Positions 1,405-64,000 of a stretch of DNA of 64,000 bases are shown here, piece by piece; the stretch's first letter is position 1, and each line of letters starts with the position of its first letter. Under the pieces are notes generated by a model. The model was not told where the DNA came from and did not search any database. It saw nothing but the letters and a program-made list of their open reading frames with translations. Position numbers and translations under genes: made by a program. This stretch comes from an uncultured Holophagae bacterium (lineage in GTDB: Bacteria; Acidobacteriota; Thermoanaerobaculia; Thermoanaerobaculales; Sulfomarinibacteraceae), in contig CAVQBD010000002.1 of assembly GCA_963710645.1 (NCBI GenBank), positions 74,828 to 138,827 on the forward strand, read 5' to 3'.

Positions 1405-1613
1405 CGATCGAAGAACGAAGAACGAAGAACGAAGACCCCCACCCGCCCGAAACGAGAGATGGCGCGACCGGCGGGCGTGCAGTCTTCGACATTGTTGGGA
1501 CCCTGAGTGTTGGAGTGGCCATCTCGTGGGATCCCAACAATGTCTAAGGGGGCAACCTCGGGGAGCGCTTGAGGGAGATGGGCGCGTGCGTCCGGAAACG
1601 GAAACGGAAACGG
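1405..1613 (-). repeat. Mosaic intergenic repeat, copy 1
   Basis: Contents in order: (CGAAGAA)x4 at 1409-1435; C-box 1436-1449; module C (reverse complement) 1461-1480; 13-bp-stem hairpin 1488-1500/1532-1544; module B (reverse complement) 1556-1585; (GGAAAC)x3 at 1593-1613. Homologous by direct comparison to 50412-50558, 52880-53146, 29824-29962 and 63893-64000. Confidence 0.85.
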
Positions 1614-2289: not shown

Positions 2290-2677
2290 GGATTGACTAT
2301 ACCGTGACCGCGAGCAATGGGCCGGGGTCCTGAGGAGTCGAAAGTCGAAAGTCGAATACAACCTCCCGCTTCCCCTGGGCGAGAGGTGGCATCTGTGTGA
2401 TCTGTGGGCTCTCCGGGTGGTCGGGGCTGAACTCTCAACTCGGCCAAGCGGCAACGGCAACGGTAACGGGCTTCCGGCTCCGCCTCTGGCTACGCCGTGA
2501 CAAGCGGGCTCGCGCGGGTGGTGGAGAACGTTTGACGTTTGACTTTTAACGTCCACGCCCTCCACACCTTCTCACCTTGTGTCGGTGGGCGGGCAAAAAA
2601 GTGACCGCCCGGAGGCGGTCGTTGGAGAGAGTGATGTCATGGGCTCGCGCCCGTATGTCCGGTAGTTCTGCGGTTTC

Positions 2678-6633: not shown

Positions 6634-6721
6634 GAATGAGAAATGAGAAATGGGAAGTTGACCGTTTCTTCAGGCCGTTGGGACAAGCAATGTCACATTT
6701 CTGATTTCTGATTTCTCATTC
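6634..6721. repeat. Heptamer-built inverted repeat between convergent genes
   Basis: GAATGAGAAATGAGAAATG (6634-6652) faces ATTTCTGATTTCTGATTTCTCATTC (6697-6721). At least 11 bp pair perfectly at the outer ends, and the stems are made of (GAGAAAT)n / (ATTTCTN)n. Possible bidirectional terminator without a U-tract. Confidence 0.7.
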
Positions 6722-15138: not shown

Positions 15139-15165
15139 CGACAGAATCAATCACAGCTTCAATCG

Positions 15166-15191: not shown

Positions 15192-15363
15192 GGTCTTGGG
15201 GTCTCGAGGTCCTGTGGCCAGACCCCGAGACCTGTTGTTGAAGAAATTCGGAATTCGAAATTCGGAATTCGAAAACCCTCCCACCCGTGTGTGAACAAGG
15301 AATATGGAGCACCGCCGCCCACCCGGGATAGGGAGTCGTTACACGTTCAACGTTAAACGTTAG

Positions 15364-16289
15364 GTTCATCCGGGGAATCGTGAGGTGGGGTTTCTGCGTG
15401 CCCGTCTCCGTGCGGGGATTCAGGCGGCAGGGGCAGCGACGGCAATCAGGGACAGCGTCCGTGATCGGCGGCTGCGTCAGCGATCAGGGGCCGCGGCAGT
15501 GATCAGCTGGGATTGCTCCGGGTTGCGGTCGCTGTCCACCGATACTGCCATCTGCCCCGGACGCCGGTTGCTGTCCCTGTCCCGGCCGCTGCCGACTGCC
15601 GCTGATAGCTGTTCCTCAGAGCGCATCGTGATCACCTCCGGGTCGTTCGCTCGGAGGGAATCGTCGATCTGTCTCCGGATGTCAAGGGCAAGACAAGTCG
15701 TCGGACGACCCTTGACATCCGGAGAAAGATCGACGTCGAGAGAGTTTCATGGACGACCCGGAGGTGATCATGATCGACGCGTGCCAAGGCAACCAACTCA
15801 TCGTCTACGGCAAGGCCATCGAGGCGGCCGGGGAAGCCATCTCCCTCGTCAAACGAGTGCCGGCTCCCGTCAAGAGCCTCGCCGATCAGGTGATCAGATC
15901 GGCGTCATCGGTTCCCGCCAACATTGCAGAAGGCCACGGCCGAACGGGCCGGGATAGACTCCATCATTGGCGAATCGCCTACGGCTCCGCGAAGGAGGTC
16001 GATTGCCATCTTCGCCTCCTGGTTCATGCTGGGGCGATAGACTCCACTCGCGTGGGCGATTCGCTACAGCTCTTCGATCAGGTCCGTGCCATGATCTGGC
16101 GTTTGCTGAACCCAAGGCCCTGATTGGGGCTCCTCGCACGAGCAATTCCGGATGCTGGCGCCGGGTCTACCGCTGGTAGGCTCCGGAACCGCACATGACG
16201 TCGGTGCGATGGAACATCTCGAATATCACATTTCTCATTTCTCATTTCAAATTCAACCACTGCCCATCTCACGGAAATCCGGATGAACC
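15364..16289 (+). repeat. About 0.93-kb unit bounded by imperfect 27-bp inverted repeats
   Basis: Left end GGTTCATCCGGGGAATCGTGAGGTGGG (15364-15390). Right end CCCATCTCACGGAAATCCGGATGAACC (16263-16289), which is its imperfect reverse complement. ACGTT-type short repeats lie just outside both ends. The unit contains module A, nested hairpins and the four-helix-bundle ORF. Module A (15382-15662) is homologous to 52621-52835 and, inverted, to 63645-63891. Confidence 0.8.
15749..16123 (+). CDS. Four-helix-bundle protein (23S rRNA intervening-sequence protein family; same fold family as DGR Avd)
   Basis: 124 aa with family-typical segments (IRSASSVPANIAEGHGR ... AYGSAKEVDCHLRL). The family assignment is from memory of this family's conserved NIAEG and E..yhL pattern. 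Confidence 0.75.
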   Translation: MDDPEVIMIDACQGNQLIVYGKAIEAAGEAISLVKRVPAPVKSLADQVIRSASSVPANIAEGHGRTGRDRLHHWRIAYGSAKEVDCHLRLLVHAGAIDSTRVGDSLQLFDQVRAMIWRLLNPRP

Positions 16290-16496
16290 AAACGTTAAAG
16301 GTCCGGACATCTCGACGTCTGATGAGGACCCCTAATATTAACGTGTAACGTTCAACGTTGAACTTCGCCGAGTCCCGAGTCCCGAGTCCCGGGTTCGGTG
16401 CTGATGTTCGGGACGGGCTGGGGGGGTCGACATTCGACATTCGACATTACCTTTCGACCGGCTGGGCTGGCGGGCTACCGCCCACCGCCTGCTACC

Positions 16497-18430: not shown

Positions 18431-18533
18431 TCCCCGCCCACCCGCATGCCCGGAGAGGAACAAGGAACAAGGATCAAGGAACAACCCCCACCCGACCGGT
18501 TGGCGGGGATCAGGGGGTAGGGAGCAGAGTGAG

Positions 18534-18986: not shown

Positions 18987-19303
18987 CGACACCTTCTGGT
19001 CCGTGAGCCACCGACCGTTGAGTTGAGAATCAAGAGTCAAGAGTCGAAGGTTGTCCTGGCCACTGGCCACTCGCTGGTGACGGCTGGTCACCGCGGCCGG
19101 AGGCCGCGAGTAACCGCGGCGAACGCGGTCCGAAAATTGGCGCCACGAGTGTCACCGAACCGCCCGCAGACTGCCAATAATGTCTGGGTCTGTGAGCCGC
19201 AAGCCGTGAGGCGCGAGCCTCGCAAACGGGGATCTTCGTTCTTGGTTCTTCGATCTTCGTTCAGGTGGGCGGGTGGGGGATCCGGCATCCGGCCGGGTGG
19301 GGG

Positions 19304-21983: not shown

Positions 21984-22056
21984 ATCAAGCTACATGATAA
22001 ACGGTTCGGGGCGTCAGAAGTAGTGATCCACGCCGAAGATCTGTCTCTAACTGAAG

Positions 22057-22085: not shown

Positions 22086-22111
22086 ATGACCCTCCCAACG
22101 GTGATCCGTTT

Positions 22112-22188: not shown

Positions 22189-22212
22189 TCTAACCGAGAG
22201 CCATACGACTGC

Positions 22213-22289
22213 GGGGTCGTAGTTCAGTTGGTTAGAACGCAGGCCTGTCACGCCTGAGGTCGCGAGTTCGAGTCTCGTCGGCCCCGCCA
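22213..22289 (+). tRNA. tRNA-Asp (anticodon GTC)
   Basis: Acceptor GGGGTCG/CGGCCCC, anticodon arm CAGGC-CTGTCAC-GCCTG, T-loop TTCGAGT, discriminator G, encoded CCA. Confidence 0.9.
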
Positions 22290-22301
22290 CTTCATTTCAC
22301 G

Positions 22302-22330
22302 GCCGCCCTTTTCGGGCGGCTGTTTCATTT
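22302..22330 (+). terminator. Rho-independent terminator after the tRNA pair
   Basis: GCCGCCC-TTTTC-GGGCGGC stem-loop followed by the T-rich tract TGTTTCATTT. Confidence 0.6.
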
Positions 22331-22488
22331 CGTGTCGGGGCCTCCGTGACTCGCGGCACCGTCACCTGGGGGCCGTCACGGACTGCCCGCCTTGCGGCAA
22401 GCCCGTTTCGGGCTGCCGTAGCAGGCGGTGGAGGTCGATATCCGCTCGCAATGCAGGACCGGAGAGGCTAAGGTCTTCTGGCCTGAAC

Positions 22489-23334: not shown

Positions 23335-23386
23335 ATTCGAGCGTTCCCCGCGGCGATCACCGTCGTTCGGATGGGCCGGCTGGTTC

Positions 23387-24733: not shown

Positions 24734-24792
24734 TCTGGTCCTCCGTTTGTGGGATTCTATATGTAACAGATTGATTCTGAAAGGGGCTACAC

Positions 24793-25611
24793 ATGTGGTA
24801 CGACGTTTGGATCGGCGCCCTGCGCAGTACGGTGATGAAGGTTCACCAAAATGCACCGGCCGTCGTTGCGGCCGTATTGTTGGTTCTCTTGGGCTGGGCC
24901 CTGGCCTGGCTCTTGGCCCGCGTCGGGAAGAGGGTCGCTGAACGCATCCTCGACGCGCTGTCGTCGAGCCGGTTCGTGGACGACGCCATCGACTCAAGCG
25001 GAGTGCGCTCCACGGCCCCGCGGGTTTTTGCGGGAATCGTCTCCTGGGCGGTTTTTCTGTTGTTCTTGGCGGCGGCGGTGGAGGTCCTTGGCCTTCCAGT
25101 CATGACGAACCTGGTTGGGCAGGTTGCCGCGTATCTCCCCAACCTCCTGGCGGCGGCCGTCATCTTCCTCGCTGCTGTGATCGCGGCGAGGATCGCGCGC
25201 GCAGCGGTGACGAAGGCCGCCCGGGCGGCCGGCATTCCCCAGGCGACCGGAATTGCAAACGTCGTCCACGGCACAATCTTCGTCATCGCGGTTGTCATCG
25301 CTTTGGAACAGCTCGGCATCAAGGGCCGAGTGCTCGAACTGACAGTGGCCGTTACGGTGGGGTCGACCCTGGCTGCCGCGGCACTGGCGTTTGGATTGGG
25401 CGCTCGCCAATCGGTGGCGAATATCATATCGGCTCGCTACGTGGCCCAGTTCTGCCGGGTCGGCCAGGCTGTCAGGATCGATGGTATCGAGGGGACCGTG
25501 GTCCAACTGACGACCACGGCGGTGATTGTAGAGGCGGAGGAGGGTAGGGTCGTCATCCCGGCAGCCCATTTCCACGATTCCCTCTCGGTCATGCTGTCGG
25601 GAGGGCCGTGA
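24793..25611 (+). CDS. Small-conductance mechanosensitive-channel-like membrane protein (conserved TM-helix repeats + beta C-terminal domain)
   Basis: Repeated TM segments with LPNLLAAAVIFLAAVIAARIA-type helices. C-terminal segment VGQAVRIDGIEGTVVQLTTTAVIVEAEEGRVVIPAAHF resembles the MscS beta-domain. Its stop lies 1 nt before the next start. Confidence 0.55.
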   Translation: MWYDVWIGALRSTVMKVHQNAPAVVAAVLLVLLGWALAWLLARVGKRVAERILDALSSSRFVDDAIDSSGVRSTAPRVFAGIVSWAVFLLFLAAAVEVLGLPVMTNLVGQVAAYLPNLLAAAVIFLAAVIAARIARAAVTKAARAAGIPQATGIANVVHGTIFVIAVVIALEQLGIKGRVLELTVAVTVGSTLAAAALAFGLGARQSVANIISARYVAQFCRVGQAVRIDGIEGTVVQLTTTAVIVEAEEGRVVIPAAHFHDSLSVMLSGGP

Positions 25612-25612
25612 A

Positions 25613-26449
25613 ATGGAGGCGACCGGTCAACTGGCGACCAGATTCGCCACGGAGCATCCCGATGAGGTTTCGCGCAGGCTCGAGAGTCTGGAGCCGGCGG
25701 TGGTGGCGCGGTTCCTCGAAGGGGTTACTCCCGCCACGGCGGCGAGTCTGATCCACCGAATGGCCCCCGCGATCGTGGCTGGATCTGTCGAGGTCATGGA
25801 AGACGGGCCGTGTATCGATATGCTCGTGCTCGTGCCCGTCCAGCGCTGCGTGCAAGTGTTGCGGCACGTCGACCCCCAACGTTGTGGCCATATCCTCAGC
25901 CACCTCCCGGAGCCTCTGGAGACGAAGGTTACCCGGATCCTGCGTTACCCGGACGGTTCGGCTGGGGCGATGGCGGACACTTCGGTCGACCCGTTGCCTG
26001 CCGACATGACCGTAGGCGACGCCTGCAAAATCTCTCAAGACCCACGTGTCCCATACGTCTACGTGGTTGGTCGCGACCACAGGCTCGCAGGAGTGGTCCA
26101 CAGACGCGACGCGAGGGCAGCGGATAAACAGTCGACCCTCGAGGCGATCATGACCACGGACGTGATTCGGATTCCCGCCCGCGCCTCGGTCGCTGCGGTT
26201 CAGAAGCACAGCGCCTGGCGCGATCTCGACGCTCTGCCGGTGGTCGATTCGTCGGGCGTCTACGTCGGGACGATTCGCCACAAATCGCTTCGGGAACTCC
26301 GGGAATCTCCGCCGTTGGCGGCTGGACCGGAATCACCACTTTCGACACTGCTCGACCTCGGCGAGTTGTATTGGGTTGGTTTGGACTCGTTGGTCGCCGT
26401 GCTCGCGGCGAAGGCGGGGGACTCTCCGGCCGGAGGGGTGGAACAATGA
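25613..26449 (+). CDS. Soluble MgtE-like protein: MgtE N-domain + CBS pair, no membrane domain
   Basis: Aligns by eye with the N-terminal 270 aa of the following MgtE (both carry the LESLEP/LESVAP ...RFL... ILRYPDGSAGAMAD / LMSYPADTAGSIMD pattern). It stops before any TM segment, and the stop overlaps the mgtE start (ATGA). Confidence 0.7.
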   Translation: MEATGQLATRFATEHPDEVSRRLESLEPAVVARFLEGVTPATAASLIHRMAPAIVAGSVEVMEDGPCIDMLVLVPVQRCVQVLRHVDPQRCGHILSHLPEPLETKVTRILRYPDGSAGAMADTSVDPLPADMTVGDACKISQDPRVPYVYVVGRDHRLAGVVHRRDARAADKQSTLEAIMTTDVIRIPARASVAAVQKHSAWRDLDALPVVDSSGVYVGTIRHKSLRELRESPPLAAGPESPLSTLLDLGELYWVGLDSLVAVLAAKAGDSPAGGVEQ

Positions 26450-27753
26450 ACAGTGATTTCCACGGGGCGACCACATCTTTGGCTGCAGACTACATTGCCC
26501 TGTTTCCGGAAGAGGCGGCGGCCGAACTGGAAAGTGTGGCACCTCCTGAAATAGCGCGATTCCTTGCCACATGTCCCACGGAAAGAGCGGCAGCCGTTCT
26601 CGGGCTGCTGCGGTCGGACATTGCCGCTGCGACGGTCACCACGATGGGGGAGACGGAGTGGAAGAGGTTGCTCCCTGTCGTCGATCCTGCCCGCGCCGTG
26701 GTGTTTCTGGCGCGGTTGGATGATTCCGTTCTCAACAGCATCCTGAGCGAGGTGGATCGCGGCACCGCGCGCGAACTCGAGACGCTCATGAGTTATCCAG
26801 CGGACACAGCGGGCTCGATCATGGACCCGCGCGTCGCCATGTTGCGGGCCGATGCGACTGCGGACCATGCACTTCAGTACCTTCGCGGTCTTCGCAAACA
26901 GAGGATCTACAACGTCCACGTGGTTGACCGTGGCGGAAGATACATCGGGAGCGTGCCGCTGCTTGAACTCGCCATCGCAGATCCCGAACAGGAGCTTCAA
27001 GGGATGATCGCAAGCCCGCCGGTGGCCGTCCAGGCAACCGCATCGCAGACCGAAGTGGTCGAGTTGATCGAGAAGCTTCGGATTCCATCGTTGCCGGTGG
27101 TGGACTTTGATGGCCACCTGATCGGACTCATCCGCTCCCAGGCCCTGACCGCCGCGGTGGAACAGGAGGCAACCGCCGACATTCAGAGCATGGTCGGTGC
27201 CAGTCGGGACGAACGCGCCCTGTCGCCGGTCCCCTTTGCCGTGCGAAAGCGGCTGCCGTGGCTCGAGGTCAACCTCGCGACGGCTTTTCTCGCCGCGTCG
27301 GTCGTCGGGTTGTTCGAAAGCACGATCGCGCGTTTTACGGCGCTGGCCGTCCTATTGCCGGTGGTGGCCGGGCAGTCGGGCAACACGGGAGCGCAGGCTT
27401 TGGCGGTGACCATGCGCGGTCTGGCCTTGCGGGAGATTGGGGTGCGCCATTGGCTCAGAGTCGCCGTGAAGGAGTTCAAGGTGGCATTCATCAACGGGAT
27501 CGCCGTCGCCGTCACCACTGCTGCGGCTGTCTTCCTGTGGAGCCGTTCGTCCGGGCTGACCCTTGTTATTGGAGTCTCCATGGTCCTGTCCATGGCTGCC
27601 GCCGGTCTCGCAGGGGCTGCGATCCCGATGTTTCTGACGGCCATCCACCAAGACCCCGCACAATCGTCGTCGATCATTCTCACCACCATCACCGACGTGG
27701 TTGGTTTCTTCAGCTTTCTGGGGATCGCCACCCTTCTCGCCGGAATGTTGTAA
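26446..27753 (+). CDS. mgtE: Magnesium transporter MgtE
   Basis: N-domain + CBS pair + 5-TM domain with family motifs (LPVVAGQSGNTGAQALAVTMRGLAL ... DPAQSSSIILTTITDVVGFFSFLG). Confidence 0.85.
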   Translation: MNSDFHGATTSLAADYIALFPEEAAAELESVAPPEIARFLATCPTERAAAVLGLLRSDIAAATVTTMGETEWKRLLPVVDPARAVVFLARLDDSVLNSILSEVDRGTARELETLMSYPADTAGSIMDPRVAMLRADATADHALQYLRGLRKQRIYNVHVVDRGGRYIGSVPLLELAIADPEQELQGMIASPPVAVQATASQTEVVELIEKLRIPSLPVVDFDGHLIGLIRSQALTAAVEQEATADIQSMVGASRDERALSPVPFAVRKRLPWLEVNLATAFLAASVVGLFESTIARFTALAVLLPVVAGQSGNTGAQALAVTMRGLALREIGVRHWLRVAVKEFKVAFINGIAVAVTTAAAVFLWSRSSGLTLVIGVSMVLSMAAAGLAGAAIPMFLTAIHQDPAQSSSIILTTITDVVGFFSFLGIATLLAGML

Positions 27754-29701: not shown

Positions 29702-30030
29702 CCCCCGCCCGCCCGATCCAAGATGCAAGATTCCCCGCCCGGCCGGAACATCAGCTCGGGACTCGGGACTCGGGACTCGGGCCCCGTCCCAGCCGGATAC
29801 GAGATGCGAGATCCGAGATACATGATCCCGCGCCCACCCGGAGAGGGATAAGCGCGATGGGCGGGCGTGCCAGGGGTGGCTCCCTCGGGGAGCGCGGTTG
29901 GGAGATGGGCGCGTCGGAGTCAGCAATTCGAAGCGAACGCGCGGGTCGGTGCCCGGCGCCGACTCGCACCTGCCACACCCTCTACACTTTCTACACCCTC
30001 TCCACCGGGCGCGCGGGTGTGGGGGATAAT
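29702..30030 (-). repeat. Mosaic intergenic repeat copy lacking the hairpin
   Basis: Heptamer tracts (CGGGACT)x4 around 29755-29785 and (CGAGATN)x3 around 29797-29820. C-box 29824-29841. Module C (reverse complement) 29852-29871 directly abuts module B (reverse complement) 29883-29912. GTGTAGA-type repeats around 29975-30005. Confidence 0.8.
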
Positions 30031-35794: not shown

Positions 35795-35963
35795 GGTTGA
35801 GGCCCGCTTTGGGGAGCGGGCGTCTCGCCTGCATGTACACGATCAATCAAGGTGAGAATTGCAGCCGGGACGGCTGCGCTACAACGCCGCTCCGGGTGGG
35901 CAGGGGGGGTCGAATTCTGAATTGGCCGGGCTGGTGCTGTCCCTAGCCCCTAGCCCCTAGTCC

Positions 35964-38900
35964 CTAGCTTTGTCCTCGAACAAACTGTGAAATGTCGACA
36001 TCGTCGATCTGCTCGGGCCGGAGATGCTGTCTGGCATAGTCGAGATACGCGCCGGAAGTGAGAAACAGATCAAAGAGCTCGGGACAGATGTGGCCGCCGT
36101 CGCGGAAGAAACCCATGATCCTCAGTGACTGGCTCAGGGTCTTTGGCGGTTTGTACGGCCGGTCGGCCGCAGTCAGCGCCTCGAAGACGTCGGCGATGGC
36201 CATGATTCTCTCCGGCATGGAGAGGTCGCCTGCTGCCAGACGTCTCGGATATCCGGTGCCGTCGAGCTTCTCGTGGTGGTTGCCGGCCCATTCGGGCACT
36301 CGGCGCAGCTCTTTTGGGAAGGGCAGCTTACCGAGCATGTGGATGGTCTGGATGATGTGTTCGTTGATCTTGAAACGCTCTTCCTGGGTGAGGGTGCCGC
36401 GGGGAACGCTCAGGTTGTGGAGCTCGCCAAGATTGTAGAGATGCTCGGGCACCGGCATCTTGAAATCGTGACGGTTGTCGGCGAAGGGTGAGCCGACCCG
36501 CTCGATGATGTGTTCTGGTCTGTCGGCCAGCAGAGGTTCGAGGACCGGCAGCCGGGGTGGCGGCTGCCGCCGTTTCCGTTCGAGCTCATCGTGCGAAAGA
36601 CCGATGCGGTCGTCGAGATGTCTCTTCCAACGCTGGCCCCCGATATCCCGGAGCCGTGCGATCGTACCCTCGTCCATGACAGTCTCGCCTGAGTTGCACT
36701 CGGCCACGAATTCGAAGTCCGATCGGATCTGGTTGAGCCGGGTTTCCAGCCTATTCCACAACCTCTCCTGGTCCTCCGGTGTGCTCGCGAGCGCGCTGTA
36801 ATACTCGATCCAGGCGTCGCGCCACAGCACCTCGAATCGGGTGCGGATCTCGTGGATCCGGTTGTAGATCGTCTCCAGGCGGGTGGCCTTGTCCACCACG
36901 TACTCCGGCGTGGTGACCTTGCCGCAGTCGTGGAGCCAGCTGGCGATGTGGAGTTCGAACCACTCGTCGTCCGTCAGGTGAAAATCTGCAAGCGGCCCAT
37001 CGGTCGCTTTGTGGGCAACCTCGGCCAGCATCCGGGCGATCTCGGGCACCCGCTGGCAGTGACCGTGGGTGTAGTGGGACTTGGCGTCGATGGCGCCCGC
37101 CACCACGTGAATGAAGGACTCGAGCAGATCTTTCTGCGCCTTCAGGAGCCGGCGAAGATCGAGGGCCACGGCGGCGTCGGAGGAGAGGGCCTCGATGTAC
37201 GGCACCACCTCGGGATCGAAGCCTGTGATCGAGCCTTCGGCGGATCGCGAATTGACCAGCTGGAGCAGACCCACCGATTCACCCTTCTGATCGGTGAGGG
37301 GCACGCTGAGCAGGGAACGGGTCTCGTAGCCGTCGCGATCAAAGCGTTCGTGGGCGACGGCGAGATCGAATTCCTCGTCGGCGCCAACGTTGTCAATCGA
37401 GATGGTCGTGCCCCGCCGTGCGGTCTCGCCGTCAATGGGCAGACGTCCCCATGCGTCCGGTTCCGAGTAGACTTTGACCGGCGCGAAGGGCGGTTCGACG
37501 CCGCTGGTTCCGCCGTAGTGCACGCCGGTTCGATCGTTTTCTAAAATCGCAACTTCCAGCTCGGTTTCGTCCTCCGTTTCCATCAGAATGGCCCCGCCGT
37601 CTGCGTGTGAGACCTTGACGGTTTCCCGGAGGATCATCTCCAACAGTCGTCGTCGGTCCTTCTCTGCCGAAAGCGCCCGCGAAATATCGAAAAATCGCTG
37701 GAGCGAGGACTTCATGACACCCATGGTCTTGGCCAATCCGTCCACTTCGGCGATCCGTGAACGCGCCGCCATGGGCGTCTCCAGCTTGAAACGCCGGATC
37801 TGTTCCGCCTCCCGCGCCAGTTCGCGGAGCGAACCCGAAATTCCGCGCGACACCCAGAGCACGAGGCCGACGGCCGCGAGCATGAGAGCTGCCGACAGAG
37901 CGAGGCTTCGGTTTCGAAGGCGGTTCACATTGGAGAGCAGCTCGTTGTGGGGAATCAGAGTCGCCAGGTATACCTGCTCTCCCGACTGTGTGGGGAGGTT
38001 GGTAATTGAGGTGAGCCATCTTGCGCCCTCAACCTCGAGTCCTGAATGGTCGAAGCCCCCGCCGCCGTCAAGACTCTCGGCCAGGGCACGGTATGCCGGG
38101 TGGTCCAGGTCGGCCAACCGCGGCATTTCAACCTCACCGGATGAACGGCTGCCGACCAGAGGTACGTCCCGATCGTGGTCTGAAAGGGCAACCACACGAC
38201 CCTGGCCGTCGAAGATGGCGATGATCGTCGAGGCCGTGACCCGTTCCCGGGCGACGGCGGCGGACAGATCGCGAAGGGCAAGATCCACTCCCACGACACC
38301 TCCTCCTGCGGCCAACTGGCGGGCGAAGGTCAGCCCGACCTCACCGGTCGTGAAGAAGGTGTAGAAATCGGTGGTGATCTGATTTTGAGTGGCCATGGCC
38401 TCCGAGTACCATTCGCGAGACCTGGGATCGAAATCGGTGGCCGACACCGGCCGGCGTTCCACTAGGTCGAGCTCTTCGTCGAAGAACAGCAGCGCCTCCT
38501 CAGCGGGTGCGTTCGGCGCGTGGTCGATGCTCTGGATCGCGTAACGGCTGGTGGGCGGTGCGTTCAGGGCGACTCCGGCGGCGTCGAGTCGTTGGAGAGA
38601 TCTGATGAGGAAAAAATCGCCGTCATCGTAGCCGACATAGATCGCCGACAGGTCGGGGTTGAGGTGCAGGGCCTCGGCGACAGGCGCAAGGGCCGGTAGG
38701 CGTTGGTCCAGCGAGGATCCGGCCCAGATGGCGCTCTTTGACGTGATGTCCACCAGGCCCTGGGCGGGTTGGTAGATCTCCGCGATGCTGGTCTGCATCT
38801 GGCGGCCGATCCGTTCCATCAGGTCGTGAGCGCCGAGAAACTCGGCCCGGCGGCTCTCGACGTAGTTGAACGCGATGAGGGCCAGGCCGAAGATCACGAA

Positions 38901-39059: not shown

Positions 39060-39158
39060 TCCGTGAAGGCCGGAGTTGGTCCGGGTTCCAAGTTCCGCGT
39101 TCCGGGTTGATACTCAGGGCGGGTGGGGGTTCGAATTTCTAATTTCGAATTCTCCGGG

Positions 39159-40180: not shown

Positions 40181-40299
40181 TCAACTGTCGAGTGACCGCG
40201 AGATTCACTCCGCGGACTTTGTGAATCGCGAAGAGACGGAAAGCTCAGGTTCACACCGACTGTCGAGATTTCAGCCTGGGTACGGCCGACGGCTGGCAG

Positions 40300-41655: not shown

Positions 41656-41707
41656 GTGCCTCGCTTCCTTCGTTCGCGGCTAGTGATGATAACGGCCCCG
41701 GGTGAAT

Positions 41708-41796
41708 ATGTGAAATGTGAAATAAAATTCTGGCAACCCCCCACGCCCGAGCGAATGGCTGGAGTTCATTGGCGATTTCAATTTCACATTTCACAT
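41708..41796. repeat. Heptamer-built 16-bp perfect inverted repeat with a C-box-containing loop, in a divergent promoter region
   Basis: ATGTGAAATGTGAAAT (41708-41723) faces ATTTCACATTTCACAT (41781-41796). The 57-nt loop contains CAACCCCCCACGCCCGAGCG. It ends 5 nt before the ATG at 41802. Confidence 0.85.
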
Positions 41797-41801
41797 TTGT
41801 C

Positions 41802-44054: not shown

Positions 44055-44419
44055 ATGAGGATCAGATCAGGCTCGAAAAGAACGTCCTCACCGAGGACCT
44101 CGGGTTGATAGCCGCGGCGGGATACATCAACAATGAGGGCGGGCAGGCCATCGCCGACGCTGCAACAGATCTGATGGAGAAGGGGTGCGGCACCCTTCTG
44201 ATTGATCTTGACGGAACACGGATCATCAATTCGATCGGCGTGTCCATTCTGTTGGAGATCATGGAGAAGCTGATTGAACAGCAGGGCCATTTGGCCTTTT
44301 GCAGTTTGACTCCAACCATCTCCAAGACTTTCGAGATCATGGGTCTTGTTCAGTACGCCACAATCTACCCGGATCAGGAGACCGCGAGGGCAGAGCTCGA
44401 GGGCCATGCCACGAGGTGA
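44051..44419 (+). CDS. STAS-domain anti-anti-sigma-type protein (RsbV/SpoIIAA-like)
   Basis: 122 aa with the STAS pattern (LLIDLDGTRIINSIGVSILLEI ... LAFCSLTPTISKTFEIMGL), including the phosphorylatable-Ser context INSIG. Confidence 0.8.
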   Translation: MNEDQIRLEKNVLTEDLGLIAAAGYINNEGGQAIADAATDLMEKGCGTLLIDLDGTRIINSIGVSILLEIMEKLIEQQGHLAFCSLTPTISKTFEIMGLVQYATIYPDQETARAELEGHATR

Positions 44420-45911
44420 TCTGCTCCAACTCGCGGAGCTCGCCCTGGCCGGTCATGTCAGTCCACAGCTCGTCGAGGATCTTCTGAGGGCGGTGGTTGA
44501 AGACTCCGGCTCGAGAGCCGGGGTGTTCCGCCGGGCGGATGAAGTTGAGGCGCGGTGGCCGAGGACAGTGTCGGCCCAGGTGGAAGAGGCCACCGACGGG
44601 TGGACCGAGGTGCCCTTCGGATCTGACCACGGCGCGTGGTGTCTTCGGCTATTGCAGCCGGAGCGACTCGACGAAGGGGTGCTCGGCGCCGCCCGAATTG
44701 TGCTGCGCTCCATGGCCCTCAGGGACGAACTCAAGCGGACACGCTTTGATGAGCGGTTCCACCTCTGGGAGCTGGAGACCATTCGCTCCATCGCCTCGGA
44801 CATCGGCGGCATCCTCGAGGTTTCCGGGATTTCCCAGGAGCTCATCAACCACCTGGTGGCCCTGCTGGGCGTTCGCTCGGCCCAAATCTACCTCGGTGTT
44901 GACGCCGATCAGGCGGAGATCACCGGGGGGTTCGGGCCCGAGGTGCTGGATTCGGGTCAGCAGGCACACGCCTGGCGGCAGGGTCTCTACTCCGACGACG
45001 TGGTAGCTCTGCCTCTTCAGTCGGAGAAGGGAACTCTCGGAATCCTGGTGGCGGCGCACAAGGAGGCTCGGGCTGGGACCGAGGCCTTCGCCGGCAACGA
45101 TGTCCGGCTCTTGGAGCTCTTCGCCATCCAGGTCACCATGGCCCTGGATTTCGCTCGGCTGACGCAGGAGTCCCTCGAGAGGGAGCGCCTGAGGCGCGAA
45201 CTCGAGGTGGCGGCCGAGATCCAGTCCCACCTCTACCCGCAGGAATTTCCTCAGTTCGAGGGTTTCAGGCTGGCGGCCAGGTCTCTGCCGAGCCGGCACG
45301 TGGCTGGAGACACCTACGATGTTCTGTTGGACAGGGGCCATCTCATTGCCACGGTCACCGATGTGTCGGGTAAGGGCGTCGGGGCGGGCATGATCGCTGC
45401 CGGAATCCACTCCGCTGTGCGGCTGCTGTCGGAAACCGAGGGGTCGCTCGACGGACTGGCAATGCGGATCAATACCTACCTGGCAGGAGCCACTGAGGAC
45501 AACCGGTTTGCCACCTTTGCCATGGTCCGCTTGGCTCCCGACGGTCGTCTGACGGCGGTGAACGCCGGCCACTGCCCGGTGTTGATCAGGAGACGGGACG
45601 GCACCATTGAACAGATCCAGTCCAGCGGCCTGCCGCTGGGAATTTTGGAAGCCGCCCGGTACACCCAGTCGGTCAGCCAGCTCGATCCCGGCGATCTGCT
45701 GCTGCTTTATACCGATGGTCTCACCGAGGCGGAGAACCCTGCGGAAGAGGAGTTCGGAGTCCCTCGAGTGGAGCAGGCGGTGGCGGTCTTGGACGATCCC
45801 ACTGCCGAGTCTTCCTGCGGCGATCTCATGCGCGCGGTGAATGAGTTTGCCTGCGGCAAGCCGCTGGTTGATGACGCGACGCTGCTCGTTGTTGAACGTC
45901 TTTCCGAGTAG
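44406..45911 (+). CDS. GAF + PP2C (SpoIIE/RsbU-like) serine phosphatase
   Basis: GAF region followed by PP2C motifs (VAGDTYDV ... VTDVSGKGVGAG ... LLLYTDGLTEA ... DDATLLVVER). Overlaps the end of the STAS gene by 14 nt. Confidence 0.8.
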   Translation: MPRGDLLQLAELALAGHVSPQLVEDLLRAVVEDSGSRAGVFRRADEVEARWPRTVSAQVEEATDGWTEVPFGSDHGAWCLRLLQPERLDEGVLGAARIVLRSMALRDELKRTRFDERFHLWELETIRSIASDIGGILEVSGISQELINHLVALLGVRSAQIYLGVDADQAEITGGFGPEVLDSGQQAHAWRQGLYSDDVVALPLQSEKGTLGILVAAHKEARAGTEAFAGNDVRLLELFAIQVTMALDFARLTQESLERERLRRELEVAAEIQSHLYPQEFPQFEGFRLAARSLPSRHVAGDTYDVLLDRGHLIATVTDVSGKGVGAGMIAAGIHSAVRLLSETEGSLDGLAMRINTYLAGATEDNRFATFAMVRLAPDGRLTAVNAGHCPVLIRRRDGTIEQIQSSGLPLGILEAARYTQSVSQLDPGDLLLLYTDGLTEAENPAEEEFGVPRVEQAVAVLDDPTAESSCGDLMRAVNEFACGKPLVDDATLLVVERLSE

Positions 45912-45917
45912 TAACAA

Positions 45918-46047
45918 GCGAATAGTAAATAGTAAATAGTGAATAGTAAATAGTGAATAGTGAATAGTGAATAGTGAATAGTCCCCCTCCCGCCCACCAC
46001 GATCGTGGGGAGCACTTACTATTCGCTATTCACTATTCGCTATTCAC
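45918..46047. repeat. Heptamer microsatellite hairpin between convergent genes
   Basis: (RAATAGT)x9 at 45918-45982 faces (ACTATTC)x4 at 46016-46047, with about 28 of 30 positions paired. The loop carries CCCCCTCCCGCCCACC and the 12-bp palindrome CCACGATCGTGG. Confidence 0.9.
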
Positions 46048-46073
46048 TTTGCGGGCTACAGCCCGAACAGACC

Positions 46074-47843
46074 TCAATTTGCGTACATTGACTCTATGAG
46101 TTCGGTGTAATCCTTCTCCACCGCCCGGCGCTTGACCTTCAAGGTCGGCGTCAATTGGCCGGATTCGATGGACAGCATCAGCGGCAATACCTCGAACTTC
46201 TTGATCTGTTCGTAGCGCGCCAGATCCTTGTTGGTGTCATTGATGACCCGAGCGAACTCGGCCTTGAGATCGGGATGGCGGGTGAGTTCCTTGAACGAGG
46301 TGTGGGTGTAGCCCTTGCTCACGGCCCACTTCTCGACCTCCTCTTCATTGGGGGACAGGAGGGCGATGATGAACGGGCGGCGATCGCCGATCAGGACCGC
46401 GTTGTCCACCAAGGGCGAACGTTTGAGTTCGTTCTCGATGGGCTGCGGCGCCACGTTTTTTCCGCCGGCGGTGACGATCAGGTCTTTCTTGCGATCGGTG
46501 ATGCGGATGAATCCGTCGCCGTCGATTTCCGCGATGTCCCCGGTCAGGAAGAACCCCTCCTCGTCGAAGACTTCGGCGGTCTTCTCGGGGAGGTTCCAGT
46601 AACCCTTCATGACGTTGGGTCCACGACAGCAGAGTTCTCCATCGTCAGCGATTTTCACCTCCACGTCGTCGATGGGTTGGCCCACTGTGCCCAGACGCGT
46701 CATGTTGGGCGTGGCTCCGTTGACTGCGATCACCGGCGAGGTCTCGGTCAGGCCGTAGCCCTCGAGGATCCAGATTCCCAAAGAGTGAAAGAATTCGTTG
46801 ACGAAGAGCGGCAGCGGGGCGCCGCCGGAGACACAGAATCGAAGCCGTCCGCCGAGGGCCTCACGTACCTTGGACAACACGATCTTGTCGGCCACGGCGT
46901 GGCCGAATCCGAAGGACTCCTTGCCAGCCAATCGCTGAGGGTAGGCCTTGCGGCCCGCTTCTAAAGCCCAGTTGAACAGGGCGCGCCGGACCGGCGGCGC
47001 AGAGTTCACCTTGTCCACGATTTTGTCGTAGACCTTCTCATAGAAGCGCGGCACGCCGGCGAAGACGGTGGGCCGGATCTGGGCCACCAGATCGCCCACG
47101 TGGTAGACCGAGCAGTAGGCCTTGGTGGTGGCCACCGACATATAGAGATAGCCGAGCATCCGTTCGAAGACGTGGCACAGCGGCAGGAACTCGAGAGCGA
47201 AGTCGTCGGGGGCGATGGGCGCTCGACCCACGGAGGCCCTGACGTTTGACAGCAGGTTTTCGTGGGTGAGCGACACCCCTTTCGGGTTTCCGGTGGTGCC
47301 GGATGTGTAGATCAGGGTCAGGACGTCGCTTCCCTGAACGCGTTCGGCCCGCTGCCAGAAGAGGTCCCCCGCGTCAGGCGAGTCACCGGATGAAATCACA
47401 TCTCCAAACATCAGAACCCCGTCACCGGGTTCGCCGTCAATCTGGATGAGATGTTTGAGATCAGGGCACTCGCCCCGAATTTCGAGGAATTTGGCCATCT
47501 GATCGGCGTTTTCGACCACCGCAGCCACGGCCCCGCAGTCCTTCGCCTGGTAGGCCACCTGCTGAGGGTTCAGGGTGCCGTAGACCGGGACGTCAACCCC
47601 GCCCAGGTCCATGGTCGCGAGATCGGTGACGTGCCACTCCGGGCGGTTGTCCGACATCAGCATGACCCGATCGCCTTGGCCGATGCCGAGCTTCTCGAAG
47701 CCGGCTGCCAGCCCGGAGGTCATCCGAAAGAACTCGGCCGTGCTGATTGTTCGAGTCCCCTCGAGCGTGTAGTGGTAGTAGTGTTTGTCTCTCGGTGCGT
47801 CGACCTCGTGCCGGTACAGGTCCAGGATATTTCTTTCCGTCAT
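46074..47843 (-). CDS. fadD: Long-chain fatty-acid--CoA ligase (AMP-forming)
   Basis: AMP-binding motifs (IYTSGTTGNPKGV, GYGLTETS, TGDI, DRKKDLI). Confidence 0.85.
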   Translation of the reverse strand: MTERNILDLYRHEVDAPRDKHYYHYTLEGTRTISTAEFFRMTSGLAAGFEKLGIGQGDRVMLMSDNRPEWHVTDLATMDLGGVDVPVYGTLNPQQVAYQAKDCGAVAAVVENADQMAKFLEIRGECPDLKHLIQIDGEPGDGVLMFGDVISSGDSPDAGDLFWQRAERVQGSDVLTLIYTSGTTGNPKGVSLTHENLLSNVRASVGRAPIAPDDFALEFLPLCHVFERMLGYLYMSVATTKAYCSVYHVGDLVAQIRPTVFAGVPRFYEKVYDKIVDKVNSAPPVRRALFNWALEAGRKAYPQRLAGKESFGFGHAVADKIVLSKVREALGGRLRFCVSGGAPLPLFVNEFFHSLGIWILEGYGLTETSPVIAVNGATPNMTRLGTVGQPIDDVEVKIADDGELCCRGPNVMKGYWNLPEKTAEVFDEEGFFLTGDIAEIDGDGFIRITDRKKDLIVTAGGKNVAPQPIENELKRSPLVDNAVLIGDRRPFIIALLSPNEEEVEKWAVSKGYTHTSFKELTRHPDLKAEFARVINDTNKDLARYEQIKKFEVLPLMLSIESGQLTPTLKVKRRAVEKDYTELIESMYAN

Positions 47844-48508: not shown

Positions 48509-48718
48509 AATCTCTTCCAAGCGAGCCGCCGTGTCAAGTGTCCCGCCCGTCCACCCGCCAACCCGGATGCTCGATGCTGGATACTGGATGCTCGATCCGC
48601 CACCCACCCGGATACGAGATACGAGATCCCCCGCCCACCCGGGGAGGGGTGGGAGAAGAGGTGGGGAATTCACCATTGCCGAGGCTTGACAAGAAACCCA
48701 GGTGACCGATCATCTCGG

Positions 48719-48861
<143 letters not shown>

Positions 48862-50362: not shown

Positions 50363-50365
50363 GTT

Positions 50366-50590
50366 CCGGGTTCCGAAAAAGTCGGTGCCAGGCACCTCCG
50401 AGAGAAGCATCTTTCTCCCCATGCGCTCCCCGAGGGAACCACCCCTGACACTTTTCGGGACTCATGGATTTGGAGAAGAGCCTCGATGCGATCAACCCGA
50501 AAGTGTCAGAAGTGGCACGCCCGCCCGTCGCGCCCTCTCGCTTCGGGTGGGCGGGCAGCGTTGCTGTCTACTGTTTACTGCCAACTGCCT
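50366..50590 (+). repeat. Mosaic intergenic repeat copy between convergent genes
   Basis: GTTCCGG GTTCCGA at 50366-50379. Module B core 50421-50437. Hairpin 50445-50459/50496-50509. Module C 50514-50534. G-box 50544-50555. CTACTGT-type heptamers at 50565-50590 run into the 3' end of the symporter gene. Confidence 0.8.
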
Positions 50591-52384: not shown

Positions 52385-53146
52385 CGAAATTCGATGTCCC
52401 CCAACCCACCCATGAGTCCAATGTCCAAAGTCGAAAGTCGAAAGTCGCCATCACCCACCCGACACGGCTGGGGCTTTGCTCTCGGGGCCCCTTGTCGATA
52501 CCAGGTGCCGCCACGGACACTGCAATCTCGCTGGGTTCAATCTACCGAATTTCGAAGCGCCGATTCTCCGACCGCGCTCCCCGTGAGGATGGGAAGGAAC
52601 TTTCAACGTTTGGTTCATCCGGGAAAGCGTGAGGTGGGGTTTCTGCGTGCCCGTCTCCGTGTGCGAAACAGCGACGGCAATCAGGGACAGCGTCCATGAT
52701 CGGCGGCTGCGTCAGCGATCGGGGGCCGCGGCAGTGATCAGCGGCGATTGCCCCGGATTGCGGTCGCTGTTCACCGATGCTGCCATCTGTCCCGGACACC
52801 GGTTGCTGTCCCTGCCCCGGCCGCTGCCGACTGCCCGTGACGCGGATTGCTGGCGCGGACGCTGACGCCGGAATCCGGGCCCCCGCGTTCGCTTCGATGC
52901 ACTGACTTCGACGCGCCCATCTTCCAACCGCGCTCCCCGAGGTTGCCCCCTTTAACATTGTTGGGACCTCAACGAGGTGGATTTCTCAATGCCTTGAATC
53001 CCAACAATGTTAAAGACGGCACGCCCGGTCAACGCGCCCTCCCCGCCACCGGGTGGGCGGGTGGCAAGGTTCAACGTTTAACGTGCAACTCTCATCAACG
53101 GCACGCCCGCCTATCGCGCCCCCGTTCCGGGCGGGTTGGTGGGTGC
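52385..53146 (+). repeat. Largest mosaic intergenic repeat array
   Basis: In order: (AGTCGAA)x3 around 52430-52450; left-end motif GGTTCATCC at 52612; module A 52621-52835; module B 52913-52942; 16-bp perfect hairpin 52951-52966/52999-53014; module C 53018-53038; G-box 53049-53064; a second module C 53100-53120; a second G-box 53128-53146. Confidence 0.85.
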
Positions 53147-57937: not shown

Positions 57938-58039
57938 GACAGCTAATAGTCGCAATTCGCAATTCGAAATGTGTGCGATCCAGCATCCAGCATCGGCCGG
58001 GCGGGGGTATGGTACCTTTCCCGCACGGAGGCGAAACAG

Positions 58040-63487: not shown

Positions 63488-63506
63488 TCAACGATCGATT
63501 CGATTC

Positions 63507-63536
63507 AACGCCCCGCTTCGGCGGGGCGTTTTTTTT
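63507..63536 (+). terminator. Rho-independent terminator
   Basis: AACGCCCCGC-TTCG-GCGGGGCGTT stem-loop followed by T8. Confidence 0.85.
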
Positions 63537-63542
63537 GGCATG

Positions 63543-64000
63543 ACGTATGAGGTATGAGGTATGGAGGGTGGAAGGCGAGTACAGACGGTTACAGGTCATT
63601 CGATATTCGAAAATTCCATCGCACCGGCCTCGTGTGCATTTTTGGATTCCCTCCCAGCGAACGACCCGGAGGTGATCACGACGCGCTCCCAGGTACAGCG
63701 ATCAGCGGCAGTCGGCAGCGGCCGGAACAGGGACAGCGACCGGTGTCCGGGGCAGATGGCGGCATCGGTGATGGGCGACCGCAATCCGGGGCAATCCCAG
63801 CTGATCACCGCCGCGGCCCCTGACTGCTGCCTCTGATTGCTGTTCCCGGCCGCTGTCCCTGAACGCCATCGCCGCCGCTGCCATTCGGGCACGGGCGTTC
63901 GCCTCGATTCGTTGACTGAGACGCGCCCATCTCCCAACCGCGCTCCCCGAGGGAGCCCCCCTTAACATCGCTGGGACCTCAATGAGGTAGATTCCCCAAT
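63543..64000. repeat. Mosaic repeat copy truncated by the window end
   Basis: (GAGGTAT)x3 at 63545-63565. Module A in reverse orientation (63645-63891). Module B forward (63923-63952). Left hairpin arm TTAACATCGCTGGGA at about 63962-63976; the right arm is beyond the window. Confidence 0.8.

Follow-up and report, generated by a model that had tools for sequence, protein, structure and literature searches.

Why should the intergenic DNA of a bacterium carry tandem repeats whose unit is almost always seven nucleotides long, and by what process do they arise? The question is raised by a 64-kb stretch of DNA (contig CAVQBD010000002.1, positions 74,828 to 138,827; hereafter the window, meaning the whole of this stretch), and most sharply by the locus at 45918-46048 of the window, where nine RAATAGT units face about four units of the reverse complement across a short C-rich box (the C-box). 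The original prediction made for this DNA described heptamer tracts at many loci, took each locus to use its own heptamer next to a shared box, and saw in this a hint of a common generating or maintaining mechanism rather than random slippage. We give an even chance to the reading that the tracts are heptanucleotide microsatellites of the kind called long simple sequence repeats with units of 5 to 11 nt, LSSR(5-11), or short tandemly repeated repetitive (STRR) sequences, that they are a property of a clade of Thermoanaerobaculia, and that slippage and template switching generate them.

To put the period-7 bias on a firm footing, Tandem Repeats Finder (TRF) was run on the 64-kb window, and about 30 of the 69 rows that it returned had period 7. 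Every tract listed beforehand was recovered within a few bases, together with further tracts at 2528, 15245, 15337, 19026, 19056, 39130 and 48611. A gene map based on codon usage assigned 82.5% of the window to genes (54.7 kb coding vs 9.3 kb intergenic). The results showed that exact period-7 runs of at least 19 nt occur 14 times in the window and never in 30 dinucleotide shuffles, and that runs of this length number zero at periods 5, 8, 9-13 and 15, two at period 6 and one at period 14; the predicted excess over shuffled controls, with a unit length almost always of 7 nt in intergenic DNA, was thus borne out. Exact runs of at least two copies were divided between intergenic and coding DNA as 26/2 for period 7, 7/43 for period 5, 7/41 for period 6 and 1/1 for period 8. 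Identity at lag 7 in intergenic DNA was 0.332 against a background of about 0.265, and it was still slightly raised (0.286) with the tracts masked. The ~30 tracts lie at 16 loci, all 16 intergenic; among intergenic segments of 40 nt or more, 15 of 31 hold one or more of them, and the tracts account for 9.5% of intergenic bases and have a GC content of 42-45% vs 60% for the intergenic DNA. Their neighbors are housekeeping genes of all kinds, the window genes comprising sigma-54 activators, a sulfatase, RtcB with archease, and PBP1A, and no tract lies inside an open reading frame (ORF). These data exclude chance and confirm that the period-7 excess and its restriction to intergenic DNA are real.

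The organism belongs to the Acidobacteriota, class Thermoanaerobaculia, and its nearest genomes are uncultured 'Holophagae' or Thermoanaerobaculales metagenome-assembled genomes (MAGs). A cyanobacterial source, such as a Gloeobacter at 62% GC, was rejected in view of these relatives and of the genes for sigma-54 activators and a sulfatase. As the core clade we took the window, the 57-kb L001/L161/L162 contig, L163 and L164, the relatives' PBP1A proteins being 82-89% identical to that of the window. Period-7 tracts found by TRF numbered 30 in the window, 25 on the L001/L161/L162 contig, 15 in L163 and 13 in L164, i.e., 4.4-6.7 per 10 kb. With overlapping rows merged, tract density was 45.7 per 100 kb in the core clade, 11.2 in other Thermoanaerobaculia-like loci (258 kb) and 4.9 in loci from distant lineages (1.9 Mb), where period 7 is not prominent; by unit length, the tracts of the core clade numbered 76 at period 7 vs 24 at period 6, 7 at period 8 and 28 at period 9. 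An assembly artefact was considered and rejected, since the tracts recur in independent MAGs and unrelated metagenome assemblies, and for the same reason they are not private to the window genome. A metagenome scan for the window species returned one close match only, a short contig from the species of L001. In L003, positions 806-880 hold pure blocks of (CCGCTGA)x3, (CCACTGA)x3 and (CCGCTGT)x3 followed by the hexamers CCGCTG and CCCCTG, a textbook example of slippage in blocks combined with mutation of the unit.

Changes in copy number were followed in species-level orthologues and in the pair L164/L168. Four orthologous tracts keep the same unit and differ in copy number, as follows:

window 1409, x3.9; L162, x3.1
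window 57950, x3.0; L001, x3.4
window 39130, x3.1; L001, x4.1
window 52415, x4.7; L001, x4.0

Between genomes that are ~83% identical in the PBP1A gene at the nucleotide level, copy number differs by about one unit. Between L164 and L168 (96.5% nucleotide identity in PBP1A), the three alignable intergenic tracts have the same copy number with at most one substitution, seven tracts fall in regions where no alignment remains, and a segment of ~300 nt bounded by (GAATTCG)4 and the inverted complement (TTCCGAA)4 differs. The copy-number variation expected between close genomes thus held at the larger distance and failed in the three tracts that could be aligned at the smaller one.

The longest array of the window offers a further comparison:

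48719..48861, + strand: (TGCCTAC) x20.6, starting 5 nt past a promoter-like TTGACA-16-GATCAT (48686-48713)

Read as GGCAGTA, its unit is identical in register at five of seven positions to that of the orthologous L001 array, GGGAGCA (AGCAGGG) x16.7 and 100% pure, a concerted change of units; both arrays begin 4-5 nt past the conserved promoter-like motif (L001 ~9180-9215, minus strand), so that, from its position, the array would form the start of an aminotransferase leader. A second site retains a tract under a changing unit. Within 2-20 nt of the PBP1A stop codon a tract is found in all eight genomes compared, as a GAGAAAT-type inverted pair with 2-3.4 units per arm in the window, L165, L162 and L166/L167, and as a single AATTCGR tract of 3.3-4.4 units in L163, L164 and L168; AATTCGG, AATTCGA and AATGAGA can be ordered as a series whose steps are one or two substitutions. 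A tract is placed likewise after the YacP stop codon in L163, L164 and L168.

We then asked whether each locus has a heptamer of its own, as had been claimed. With rotations and reverse complements merged (~1,170 classes are possible), the 83 tracts of the core clade fall into 51 canonical unit classes, the largest of which, AAATTCG, AATTCCG and AATTCGC with 7, 6 and 5 members, jointly form an AATTCGN superfamily; about 20 of the 83 tracts have units of this type. Units containing a 6-nt palindrome (GAATTC, TTCGAA or AACGTT) account for 18 of the 83, twice the expected 10.7%, and copy number clusters at 3-4.4. The claim did not survive, given that nearly every unit of the window is seen there at a second locus and that units recur across genomes as well. 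The recurrent units of the window are:

CGAAGAA: 1409, 19233
AGTCGAA: 2336, 52415
GAGAAAT: 6635, 6697, 16229
AACGTTN: 2528, 15337, 16335
CTCGGGA: 16368, 29755
GATACGA: 29796, 48611
GATGCTN: 48566, 57978

Tracts at different loci sometimes have flanks in common, and GATNCNN tracts always lie 3' of a box. An (AATTCGG)4-AAAACC module is identical at L163 1359 and L164 12472, which are different loci, and close AATTCGR variants of it are found at window 15245 and L163 12513.

The locus from which the question arose is organized as follows, with strand given where a feature has one:

44346-45911, + strand: GAF-SpoIIE/PP2C phosphatase gene, upstream neighbor
45920..45982: left arm, (RAATAGT) x9 (TRF period 7, 9.0 copies of GAATAGT, 92% matches)
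45983..45998, + strand: C-box CCCCCTCCCGCCCACC, (CCCR)n-like, immediately next to the left arm (scan for boxes of three C-runs)
45992..46013: apical palindrome GCCCACCACGATCGTGGGGAGC, overlapping the C-box (inverted-repeat search; paired in the predicted fold)
46018..46048: right arm, (ACTATTC/GCTATTC) x4.4 (TRF period 7 x3.9, CTATTCG, 46019-46045; period 14 x2.2)
46074-47843, - strand: AMP-binding acyl-CoA-synthetase-like gene, downstream neighbor

The left arm is a mix of GAATAGT and AAATAGT units that sets in 9 nt past the phosphatase stop codon, and the right arm, whose unit is the reverse complement, stops 26 nt short of the acyl-CoA-synthetase-like gene's stop codon, so that the whole lies between the stop codons of convergent genes. 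Over its 31 nt the right arm is 94% complementary to 45952-45982, and the 35 nt between the arms, CCCCCTCCCGCCCACCACGATCGTGGGGAGCACTT, consist of the C-rich box and the overlapping palindrome; higher-order periods of 14 and 21 nt are also seen in the arms by TRF. RNA from this region (45905-46075) is predicted to fold with -64.6 kcal/mol (z -8.5) on the plus strand and -65.0 kcal/mol (z -5.9) on the minus strand. No U-run follows the stem on either strand, whereas the clear intrinsic terminators of the window (15165-15193 and 63505-63537) have one. There is no direct repeat flanking the unit, no second copy of it within the window, and no heptamer at the orthologous site in L001 or L081. Any action of the hairpin, whether as a stem at RNA 3' ends or as a cruciform, is probably no more than incidental.

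Inverted pairs of tracts occur at three of the 16 loci (6635/6697, 41702/41775 and 45920/46019), the last two carrying the C-box in their loop; the prediction that some tracts pair into long stems with the C-box in the core, at 41702-41798 and 45920-46048, was therefore correct. The other two pairs are:

6635..6720: (AATGAGA) x3.1 + (ATTTCTG/C) x3.4 around a core of 40 nt, flanked by convergent thioredoxin-like and PBP1A genes; predicted fold of 6625-6731, -29.6 kcal/mol, z -2.55
41702..41798: (GTGAAAT) x3 + (ATTTCAC) x3.6 around a core that holds the C-box, flanked by divergent sulfatase and sigma-54 activator genes; predicted to fold at -31.8 kcal/mol (z -1.66)

Most single tracts of the window fold no better than shuffled sequence, and RNA of the long array at 48719..48861 is less structured than its shuffles (z +2.56). 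A hairpin role for all tracts was accordingly rejected. These results also bear on whether the tracts are selected cis-elements, be it arrays of 7-nt sites for a binder of single-stranded nucleic acid, terminator or stabilizer hairpins, or unstructured leaders. The tract that stays by the PBP1A stop codon in 8/8 genomes despite the change of unit, the tract after YacP, and the array of 17-20 copies right after a conserved promoter-like site in two species would all suit such an explanation, as would the presence of AATTCGN-type units in five genomes, the palindromic units at twice their expected number, the clustering of copy number, and the hairpins at 45905-46075 and 6625-6731, which are far stabler than shuffles. 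Against it, 51 classes among 83 tracts are too many for one sequence-specific binder, tracts are found between genes of convergent, divergent and tandem orientation and keep no set distance to the gene ends, single tracts mostly fold like shuffles and the long array is less structured still, the hairpins have no U-run of the sort found in clear intrinsic terminators, and the focal locus is without a counterpart in L001 and L081. We consider it unlikely that the tracts are cis-elements under selection.

How the tracts relate to the C-box was analyzed next. Copies of the core 8-mer CCCACCCG in the window number 17 in intergenic DNA vs 4 in coding DNA; the full box, CCCC(C)RCCCACCCG, is essentially (CCCR)3-6, a C-rich sequence of 13-16 nt that forms no hairpin by itself. 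A composite dispersed element of ~200-350 nt has the box as its 5' end and consists in order of the box with GAGCGAGAGGGCGCG..GGGCGGGCGTGCC (this first part also reads box..GGGCGCG..GGGCGGGCGTGCC), a variable long hairpin or none, and GGGGGC..CCTCGGGGAGCGCGGTTGGGAGATGGGCGC.TCGAAGTCAG. Copies of the element are found at:

1436-1600, + strand
29826-29990, + strand, without the variable hairpin
50365-50556, - strand
52870-53064, - strand
63888-64000, - strand
L001 5296-5500
L001 17630-17850

One copy present in L001 is missing at window 40181-40299. RNAalifold predicted pairing of the C-box with the 3' G-rich module, and compensatory changes affect 14 of the 39 predicted pairs in the variable hairpin. 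A search of Rfam 15 placed only two tRNAs above thresholds; even with E-values as high as 1 allowed, no hit fell on a tract, a box or a composite element, and a known structured RNA was thus rejected as a candidate. Another dispersed hairpin element, GCGGGCCGGTGCCAGGCACCGTC...GGTGCCTGGCACCGAC, lies at window 50384-50396 and 29940-29960, sometimes nested in the composite element; it is common in L001 (11830-11900, 5450-5550 and 17800-17900), where it occupies the site orthologous to the focal locus, among others, and is also seen at L161 13830-13900.

Of the 30 window tracts, 13 have a strict box core no more than 12 nt from an edge, the expectation being 2.6 with tracts placed anywhere in intergenic DNA or 4.25 with tracts kept within their own segment, and none of 5,000 permutations reached 13; the frequent direct abutment that had been predicted is therefore upheld. 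With the three-C-run box and a local-shift null, abutment was seen for 10/30 tracts in the window and 14/25 on the L001 contig (0/2000 shifts reach either), for 3/15 in L163 (reached by 40/2000 shifts) and for 2/13 in L164 (211/2000). Box abutment is thus statistically real, but only in the window genome and its nearest relative. The idea of a system in which each heptamer needs a shared box failed, as L163 and L164 have more tracts per kb with weak or no abutment; the heptamers predate the box family and are spread more widely, and the box therefore cannot be their general cause.

Of 37 boxes, 19 touch a tract, which lies only 5' of the C-strand in 12, only 3' in four and on both sides in three. 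This distribution is relevant to the proposal that the G-rich strand of the C-box forms G-quadruplexes (G4), stalls replication and triggers slippage in adjacent DNA: the box is (CCCR)n with the complement (GGGY)n, the 5' side is the one predicted for stalling on a G-strand template, and two tracts (GGGACTC and GGGGCTA) are themselves of G4 type, like the GGGAATC repeat of Xanthomonas (PMC4692102). The side bias is not significant, however; most boxes have three G-runs, only seven canonical four-run motifs are intergenic with two of these being tracts, tract-rich relatives have few boxes, and the 7-nt unit is left unexplained. G4 stalling is in our judgment highly improbable, and as a general trigger it was rejected on the count of G-runs.

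The remaining tracts of the window, all found by TRF, many of them with boxes at their edges, are:

1409..1435: (CGAAGAA) x3.9, adjoining the C-box that opens composite element A; L162 keeps the unit, x3.1
2336..2356: (AGTCGAA) x3
2528..2552: (ACGTTTG) x3.6, AACGTTN family
15245..15271: (AATTCGR) x3.9, then AAAACC, then a C-box (box scan); variant of the (AATTCGG)4-AAAACC module
15337..15362: (ACGTTNA) x3.7, directly at the left terminal inverted repeat of the PF05635 mini-cassette (see below)
16229..16248: (CATTTCT) x2.9
16368..16391: (CCGAGTC) x3.4; tract and flank are an inverted copy of 29733-29781
16427..16448: (TCGACAT) x3.1
18456..18484: (AGGAACA) x4.1, with a C-box on each side
19026..19071: (AGAGTCA) x2.9 + (CTGGCCA) x2.3
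19233..19262: (TCTTCGT) x4.3, of the same unit class as at 1409, adjoining a minus-strand C-box (box scan)
29702..29845, + strand: box, GAT-type tract, box, (CTCGGGA) x3.9, box, (GATACGA) x3.7, box of composite element C
35941..35968: (CCCTAGC) x4, overlapping the stop codon of an HD-GYP-like gene; its G-strand, GGGGCTA, fits a G4 pattern
39080..39151: (TCCGGGT) x4.1, C-box, (TTCGAAT) x3.1; L001 keeps the AATTCGA tract, x4.1, without the other
48540..48650, + strand: box, (GATGCTC) x4.4, box, (GATACGA) x2.4, box; L001 lacks one tract-plus-box module
52415..52447: (AGTCSAA) x4.7 between two C-boxes; unit family also in L001 5268-5300
57950..57994: (TCGCAAT) x3 + (ATCCAGC) x2.4 with a minus-strand C-box alongside; in L001, AATTGCG has one copy more and the second tract is missing
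63540..63563: (ATGAGGT) x3.4, right after an intrinsic terminator

Tandem repeats with other units are (CGGAAA) x3.5 at 1593-1613, (CGGCAA) x3.5 at 2449-2469 and (ACACCCTCT) x3.6 at 29975-30006, the first and last lying at the 3' ends of composite elements; the hexamer at 1593 is not in the orthologous L162 copy. The matrixin-like (Peptidase_M10) gene at 9283-11238 contains a tandem repeat with a 39-nt unit (x8.2, 91% matches, 9551-9870) that would encode a 13-residue peptide repeat, and the L162 orthologue is much longer, at 1358 aa. Between the cytidine deaminase and SpoU methylase genes lies a candidate small RNA gene (~1700-1880, minus strand) with a promoter-like TTGACA..TATTTG, ~110 conserved nt (GTCCTGAGGGACCGCGGGCGTTCAACGAACTTCACAGCCGCG...) and a terminal hairpin (AAATCCCGCGAAAAGCGGGATTT); counterparts at L162 ~18300-18440 and L164 ~18640-18790 are conserved while the flanks diverge, and Rfam gave no match. 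Synteny is broken at window ~22000-27750 (two tRNAs at 22112-22286; EamA, CNNM, MscS-like and MgtE genes) vs L161 16474-17040, where the L001 contig carries a GFA-family gene and a tRNA-like sequence instead.

Comparison with relatives showed turnover of tracts and of tract-plus-box modules. L001 is without one tract-plus-box module (48540-48596) and without the tracts at 57978 and 39080, each a new tract beside a box in one genome only, and 5' of an orthologous composite element the window has box-tract-box-(CTCGGGA)4-box-(GATACGA)3.7 and L161 just (AGCAGGG)6.4 and a box. Tracts adjoin a second kind of element as well:

15363-16289: PF05635 mini-cassette, ~930 nt, with ~28-nt inverted ends GGTTCATCCGG..A..CGTGAGGTGGGG
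15749-16123: its PF05635 gene ('23S rRNA intervening sequence protein', Avd-like four-helix bundle)
52598-52835 and 63645-63882: partial copies of the left arm of the cassette
L163 18460-19319: copy of the cassette elsewhere in that relative

At the orthologous Aldedh/response-regulator spacer the cassette is missing in L162, L163 and L164. All five cassette ends examined face outward onto AACGTTW, the left window end carrying ACGTTNN x3.7; as this flank is constant it cannot be called a target-site duplication. Since ends of both the C-box element and the cassette adjoin tracts, at least two unrelated element families are involved. Inverted units with heptamer arms are found at the focal locus, 41702-41798 and 6635-6720, and in relatives at L164 15323-15722 (AAAGTCA/GACTTTA arms, ~340-nt core) and L168 1503-1780; their arm sequences are unrelated from unit to unit, which argues against one sequence-specific transposase.

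It is possible, though doubtful, that miniature mobile elements produce the tracts or carry them along and that the inverted units are themselves mobile, either through a process at element termini (staggered 7-nt cleavage and repair, or RNA-templated copying) or because small elements inserted into existing tracts. The abutment statistics of the window and the L001 contig and the flanks of the cassette ends speak for it, as do the joint absence of cassette and AACGTT tract at that site in three relatives, the presence and absence of tract-plus-box modules between window and L001, a 34-nt GAT-tract-plus-box in L001 that was apparently inserted within a box and duplicated it, a ~300-nt unit with (GAATTCG)4/(TTCCGAA)4 arms in L168 and L163 that L164 lacks, and copies of tracts with their flanks at unlinked loci. 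Several findings weigh on the other side. Neither a transposase nor a reverse transcriptase, an HUH nuclease (Y1/HUH domain) or a REP-associated tyrosine transposase (RAYT) is encoded among the ~47 genes of the window, the unrelated arms fit no single sequence-specific transposase, the focal unit has no flanking direct repeat, L163 and L164 are equally tract-rich with few boxes, and the deletion in L164 could be explained by slippage between the quasi-direct units GAATTCG and GAATTCC. Moreover, the heptamers flanking a box or composite element are unlike on the two sides, or inverted, and hence do not represent target-site duplications; iterated target-site duplication (7-bp insertion/excision footprints) was rejected as a general model on this ground, and at the far end a composite element has a tract of 6-mers or 9-mers instead (1593-1613; 29975-30006). 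Insertion of small dispersed repeat (SDR) elements into existing heptamer tracts was reportedly proposed for Nostoc by Elhai and colleagues in 2008; here, no uninterrupted ancestral tract that would prove insertion of the box was found, and the boxes adjoin tracts and form box-tract-box arrays (29702-29845 and 48540-48650). We regard as quite unlikely the specific form in which the tracts are the footprint of a machinery working in 7-nt steps at miniature-element termini, by staggered cleavage and repair or by templated reiteration of ends. If true, inverted heptamer-armed units would be a new class of structure-defined mobile DNA, and such a machinery could underlie the heptamer excess in cyanobacteria, Xanthomonas and other bacteria.

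We therefore return to the microsatellite reading, in which slippage and template switching, with no dedicated function, are inferred as the generators. A tract would start as a tandem duplication of 7 nt and would be lengthened, shortened and homogenized by slipped-strand mispairing in replication, with template switching across a hairpin occasionally copying it into an inverted partner. Tracts would persist only outside genes because, we propose, a 7-nt step shifts the reading frame; the structured termini of nested miniature repeats may be where they nucleate or are kept, and insertion, deletion or recombination may add or remove whole tract-plus-box modules and copy them from one locus to another. 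In the window genome and its nearest relative, tracts do sit preferentially at the ends of small nested hairpin-forming dispersed repeats, and element ends are where secondary structure and indel events concentrate. Why the unit should be 7 nt is not explained by this reading, and other observations weigh against it. Slippage alone predicts no peak at 7 nt with almost nothing at 5, 6 and 8. The constancy of the three alignable tracts between L164 and L168, whose differences are mostly whole modules or the ~300-nt indel, means that rapid slippage by single steps does not show over this span of time. To account for tract modules that are identical at unlinked loci and between genomes, dispersal or convergence is needed; the exact abutment to element ends suggests a coupled process, and the PBP1A-site tract in eight genomes, along with the similar leader array of 17-20 copies in two species, hints at selection. 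In this respect the original prediction was right that something beyond random slippage at arbitrary sites is needed.

The preference of bacterial long-unit microsatellites for 7 nt has been a standing question since the STRR reports of 1990 and a survey of 2007. The present clade is an independent and very dense case for which several related long-read MAGs are public, and it could serve as a comparative system for slippage as against element-coupled generation; the link of tracts to the termini of miniature elements is potentially interesting in this regard. In practical terms, for Thermoanaerobaculia MAGs the tracts and the nested mini-elements will mislead the calling of gene starts, the prediction of promoters and terminators, and assembly from short reads.

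Among known systems, the broadest is the LSSR(5-11) class. As summarized in two later papers (PMC4679880, PMC4692102), over-representation of heptanucleotide SSRs was found by Mrazek et al. (2007), with Burkholderia, Actinobacteria and Xanthomonas among the richest; polymerase-linked slippage and the contact length of the polymerase were suggested for the 7-nt excess, and Mrazek, Guo and Shah (2007) read it as a general tendency to expansion by polymerase slippage with no specific function. The supposition that a high-GC lineage has no equivalent is thus contradicted by these summaries and by the element families of Geobacter metallireducens (PMC2700814). The likeness lies in dominant long-unit heptamers, mostly non-coding, in free-living bacteria with large genomes, high-GC ones included, and the tracts described here are likewise longer than chance, dominated by period 7, made of non-triplet units kept out of coding DNA, and variable in copy number. 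They differ in their very high density (about half of the intergenic segments) and in being tied to the ends of dispersed elements. Acidobacteriota (Thermoanaerobaculia) are not among the lineages named in the summaries of PMC4679880 and PMC4692102, our search of a collection of papers found no report of such repeats in Thermoanaerobaculia or Acidobacteria, and the clade extends the known bacterial heptamer bias to a new lineage.

Narrower families match in part. Rehm et al. (2015; PMC4692102) described GGGNATC/GGGGAYT repeats of Xanthomonas and Nostoc with convergent inverted pairs close together. The intergenic heptamers of a high-GC genome, the inverted pairs and the variation in length and sequence at conserved positions are shared, but one G-rich, G4-forming family dominates there, whereas here there are 51 mostly AT-rich classes, with just two of the 30 window tracts of G4 type (29758-29781, GGGACTC; 35941-35964, GGGGCTA) and the other 28 AT-rich, which sets them apart from the G4 heptamers. 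MacGregor (2015; PMC4679880) reported TAACTGA direct repeats just upstream of start codons in marine Beggiatoaceae, some Cyanobacteria and Bacteroidetes, with a binder of single-stranded nucleic acid (cold-shock, S1 or CsrA-like) proposed for those of the Beggiatoaceae. They resemble the present tracts in their intergenic arrays of 2-6 copies, occasional long arrays and scattered phylogeny, and differ in having one unit and a fixed placement, a positional rule not seen here. AACTNAR heptamers do occur in more distant Thermoanaerobaculia-like relatives (L012 13780-13822, L073 5623-5660, L082 5414-5445), their units AACTCAA, AACTAAG and AACTGAA being one base from TAACTGA. The genome of Geobacter metallireducens has a GC content of about 60%. 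Its dispersed families of elements, each with four or five tandem heptanucleotides (Aklujkar et al., 2009; PMC2700814), are alike in their ~4 units and differ in units that are GC-rich (GGACCGG) and also lie inside genes, those here being AT-rich and strictly intergenic.

Other classes fit less well. The contingency SSRs of phase variation stand within an ORF or in the stretch from -35 to -10 of a promoter, belong to surface or virulence genes, and switch these on or off by their copy number. The phase-variation SSRs are set apart by the finding that no tract lies in an ORF and that the lone promoter-linked array is downstream of the -10-like hexamer, and the focal unit, with its inverted arms, differs from miniature inverted-repeat transposable elements in having neither a flanking direct repeat nor a second copy in the window. 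Repetitive extragenic palindromic (REP) sequences and the bacterial interspersed mosaic elements (BIMEs) of enterobacteria consist of a conserved palindromic sequence with a cognate RAYT. They too are intergenic, hairpin-forming mosaics of short modules between convergent genes; here the stems are heptamers that vary by locus, and the window proteins contain no RAYT or Y1/HUH domain, so that the class does not apply. There remain the cyanobacteria, whose heterocystous members were reportedly found by Mazel and colleagues in 1990 to carry STRR heptamers with consensus units such as CCCCAGT, and in Nostoc the SDRs of Elhai and colleagues are said to be dispersed elements of 21-27 nt with a conserved hairpin, lying, like minitransposons, inside tandem heptamers. 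STRR consensus units such as CCCCAGT match none of the 51 unit classes, so the tracts are not STRR members by unit; phylum and GC content differ, and the small element is a (CCCR)n box of 13-16 nt rather than a hairpin of 21-27 nt. The many varied intergenic heptamers, the tiny common elements in or against the tracts, the nested insertions and the hairpins are common to both, and by this analogy the landscape described here appears most to resemble that of Nostoc, with its varied heptamers and embedded small dispersed repeats.

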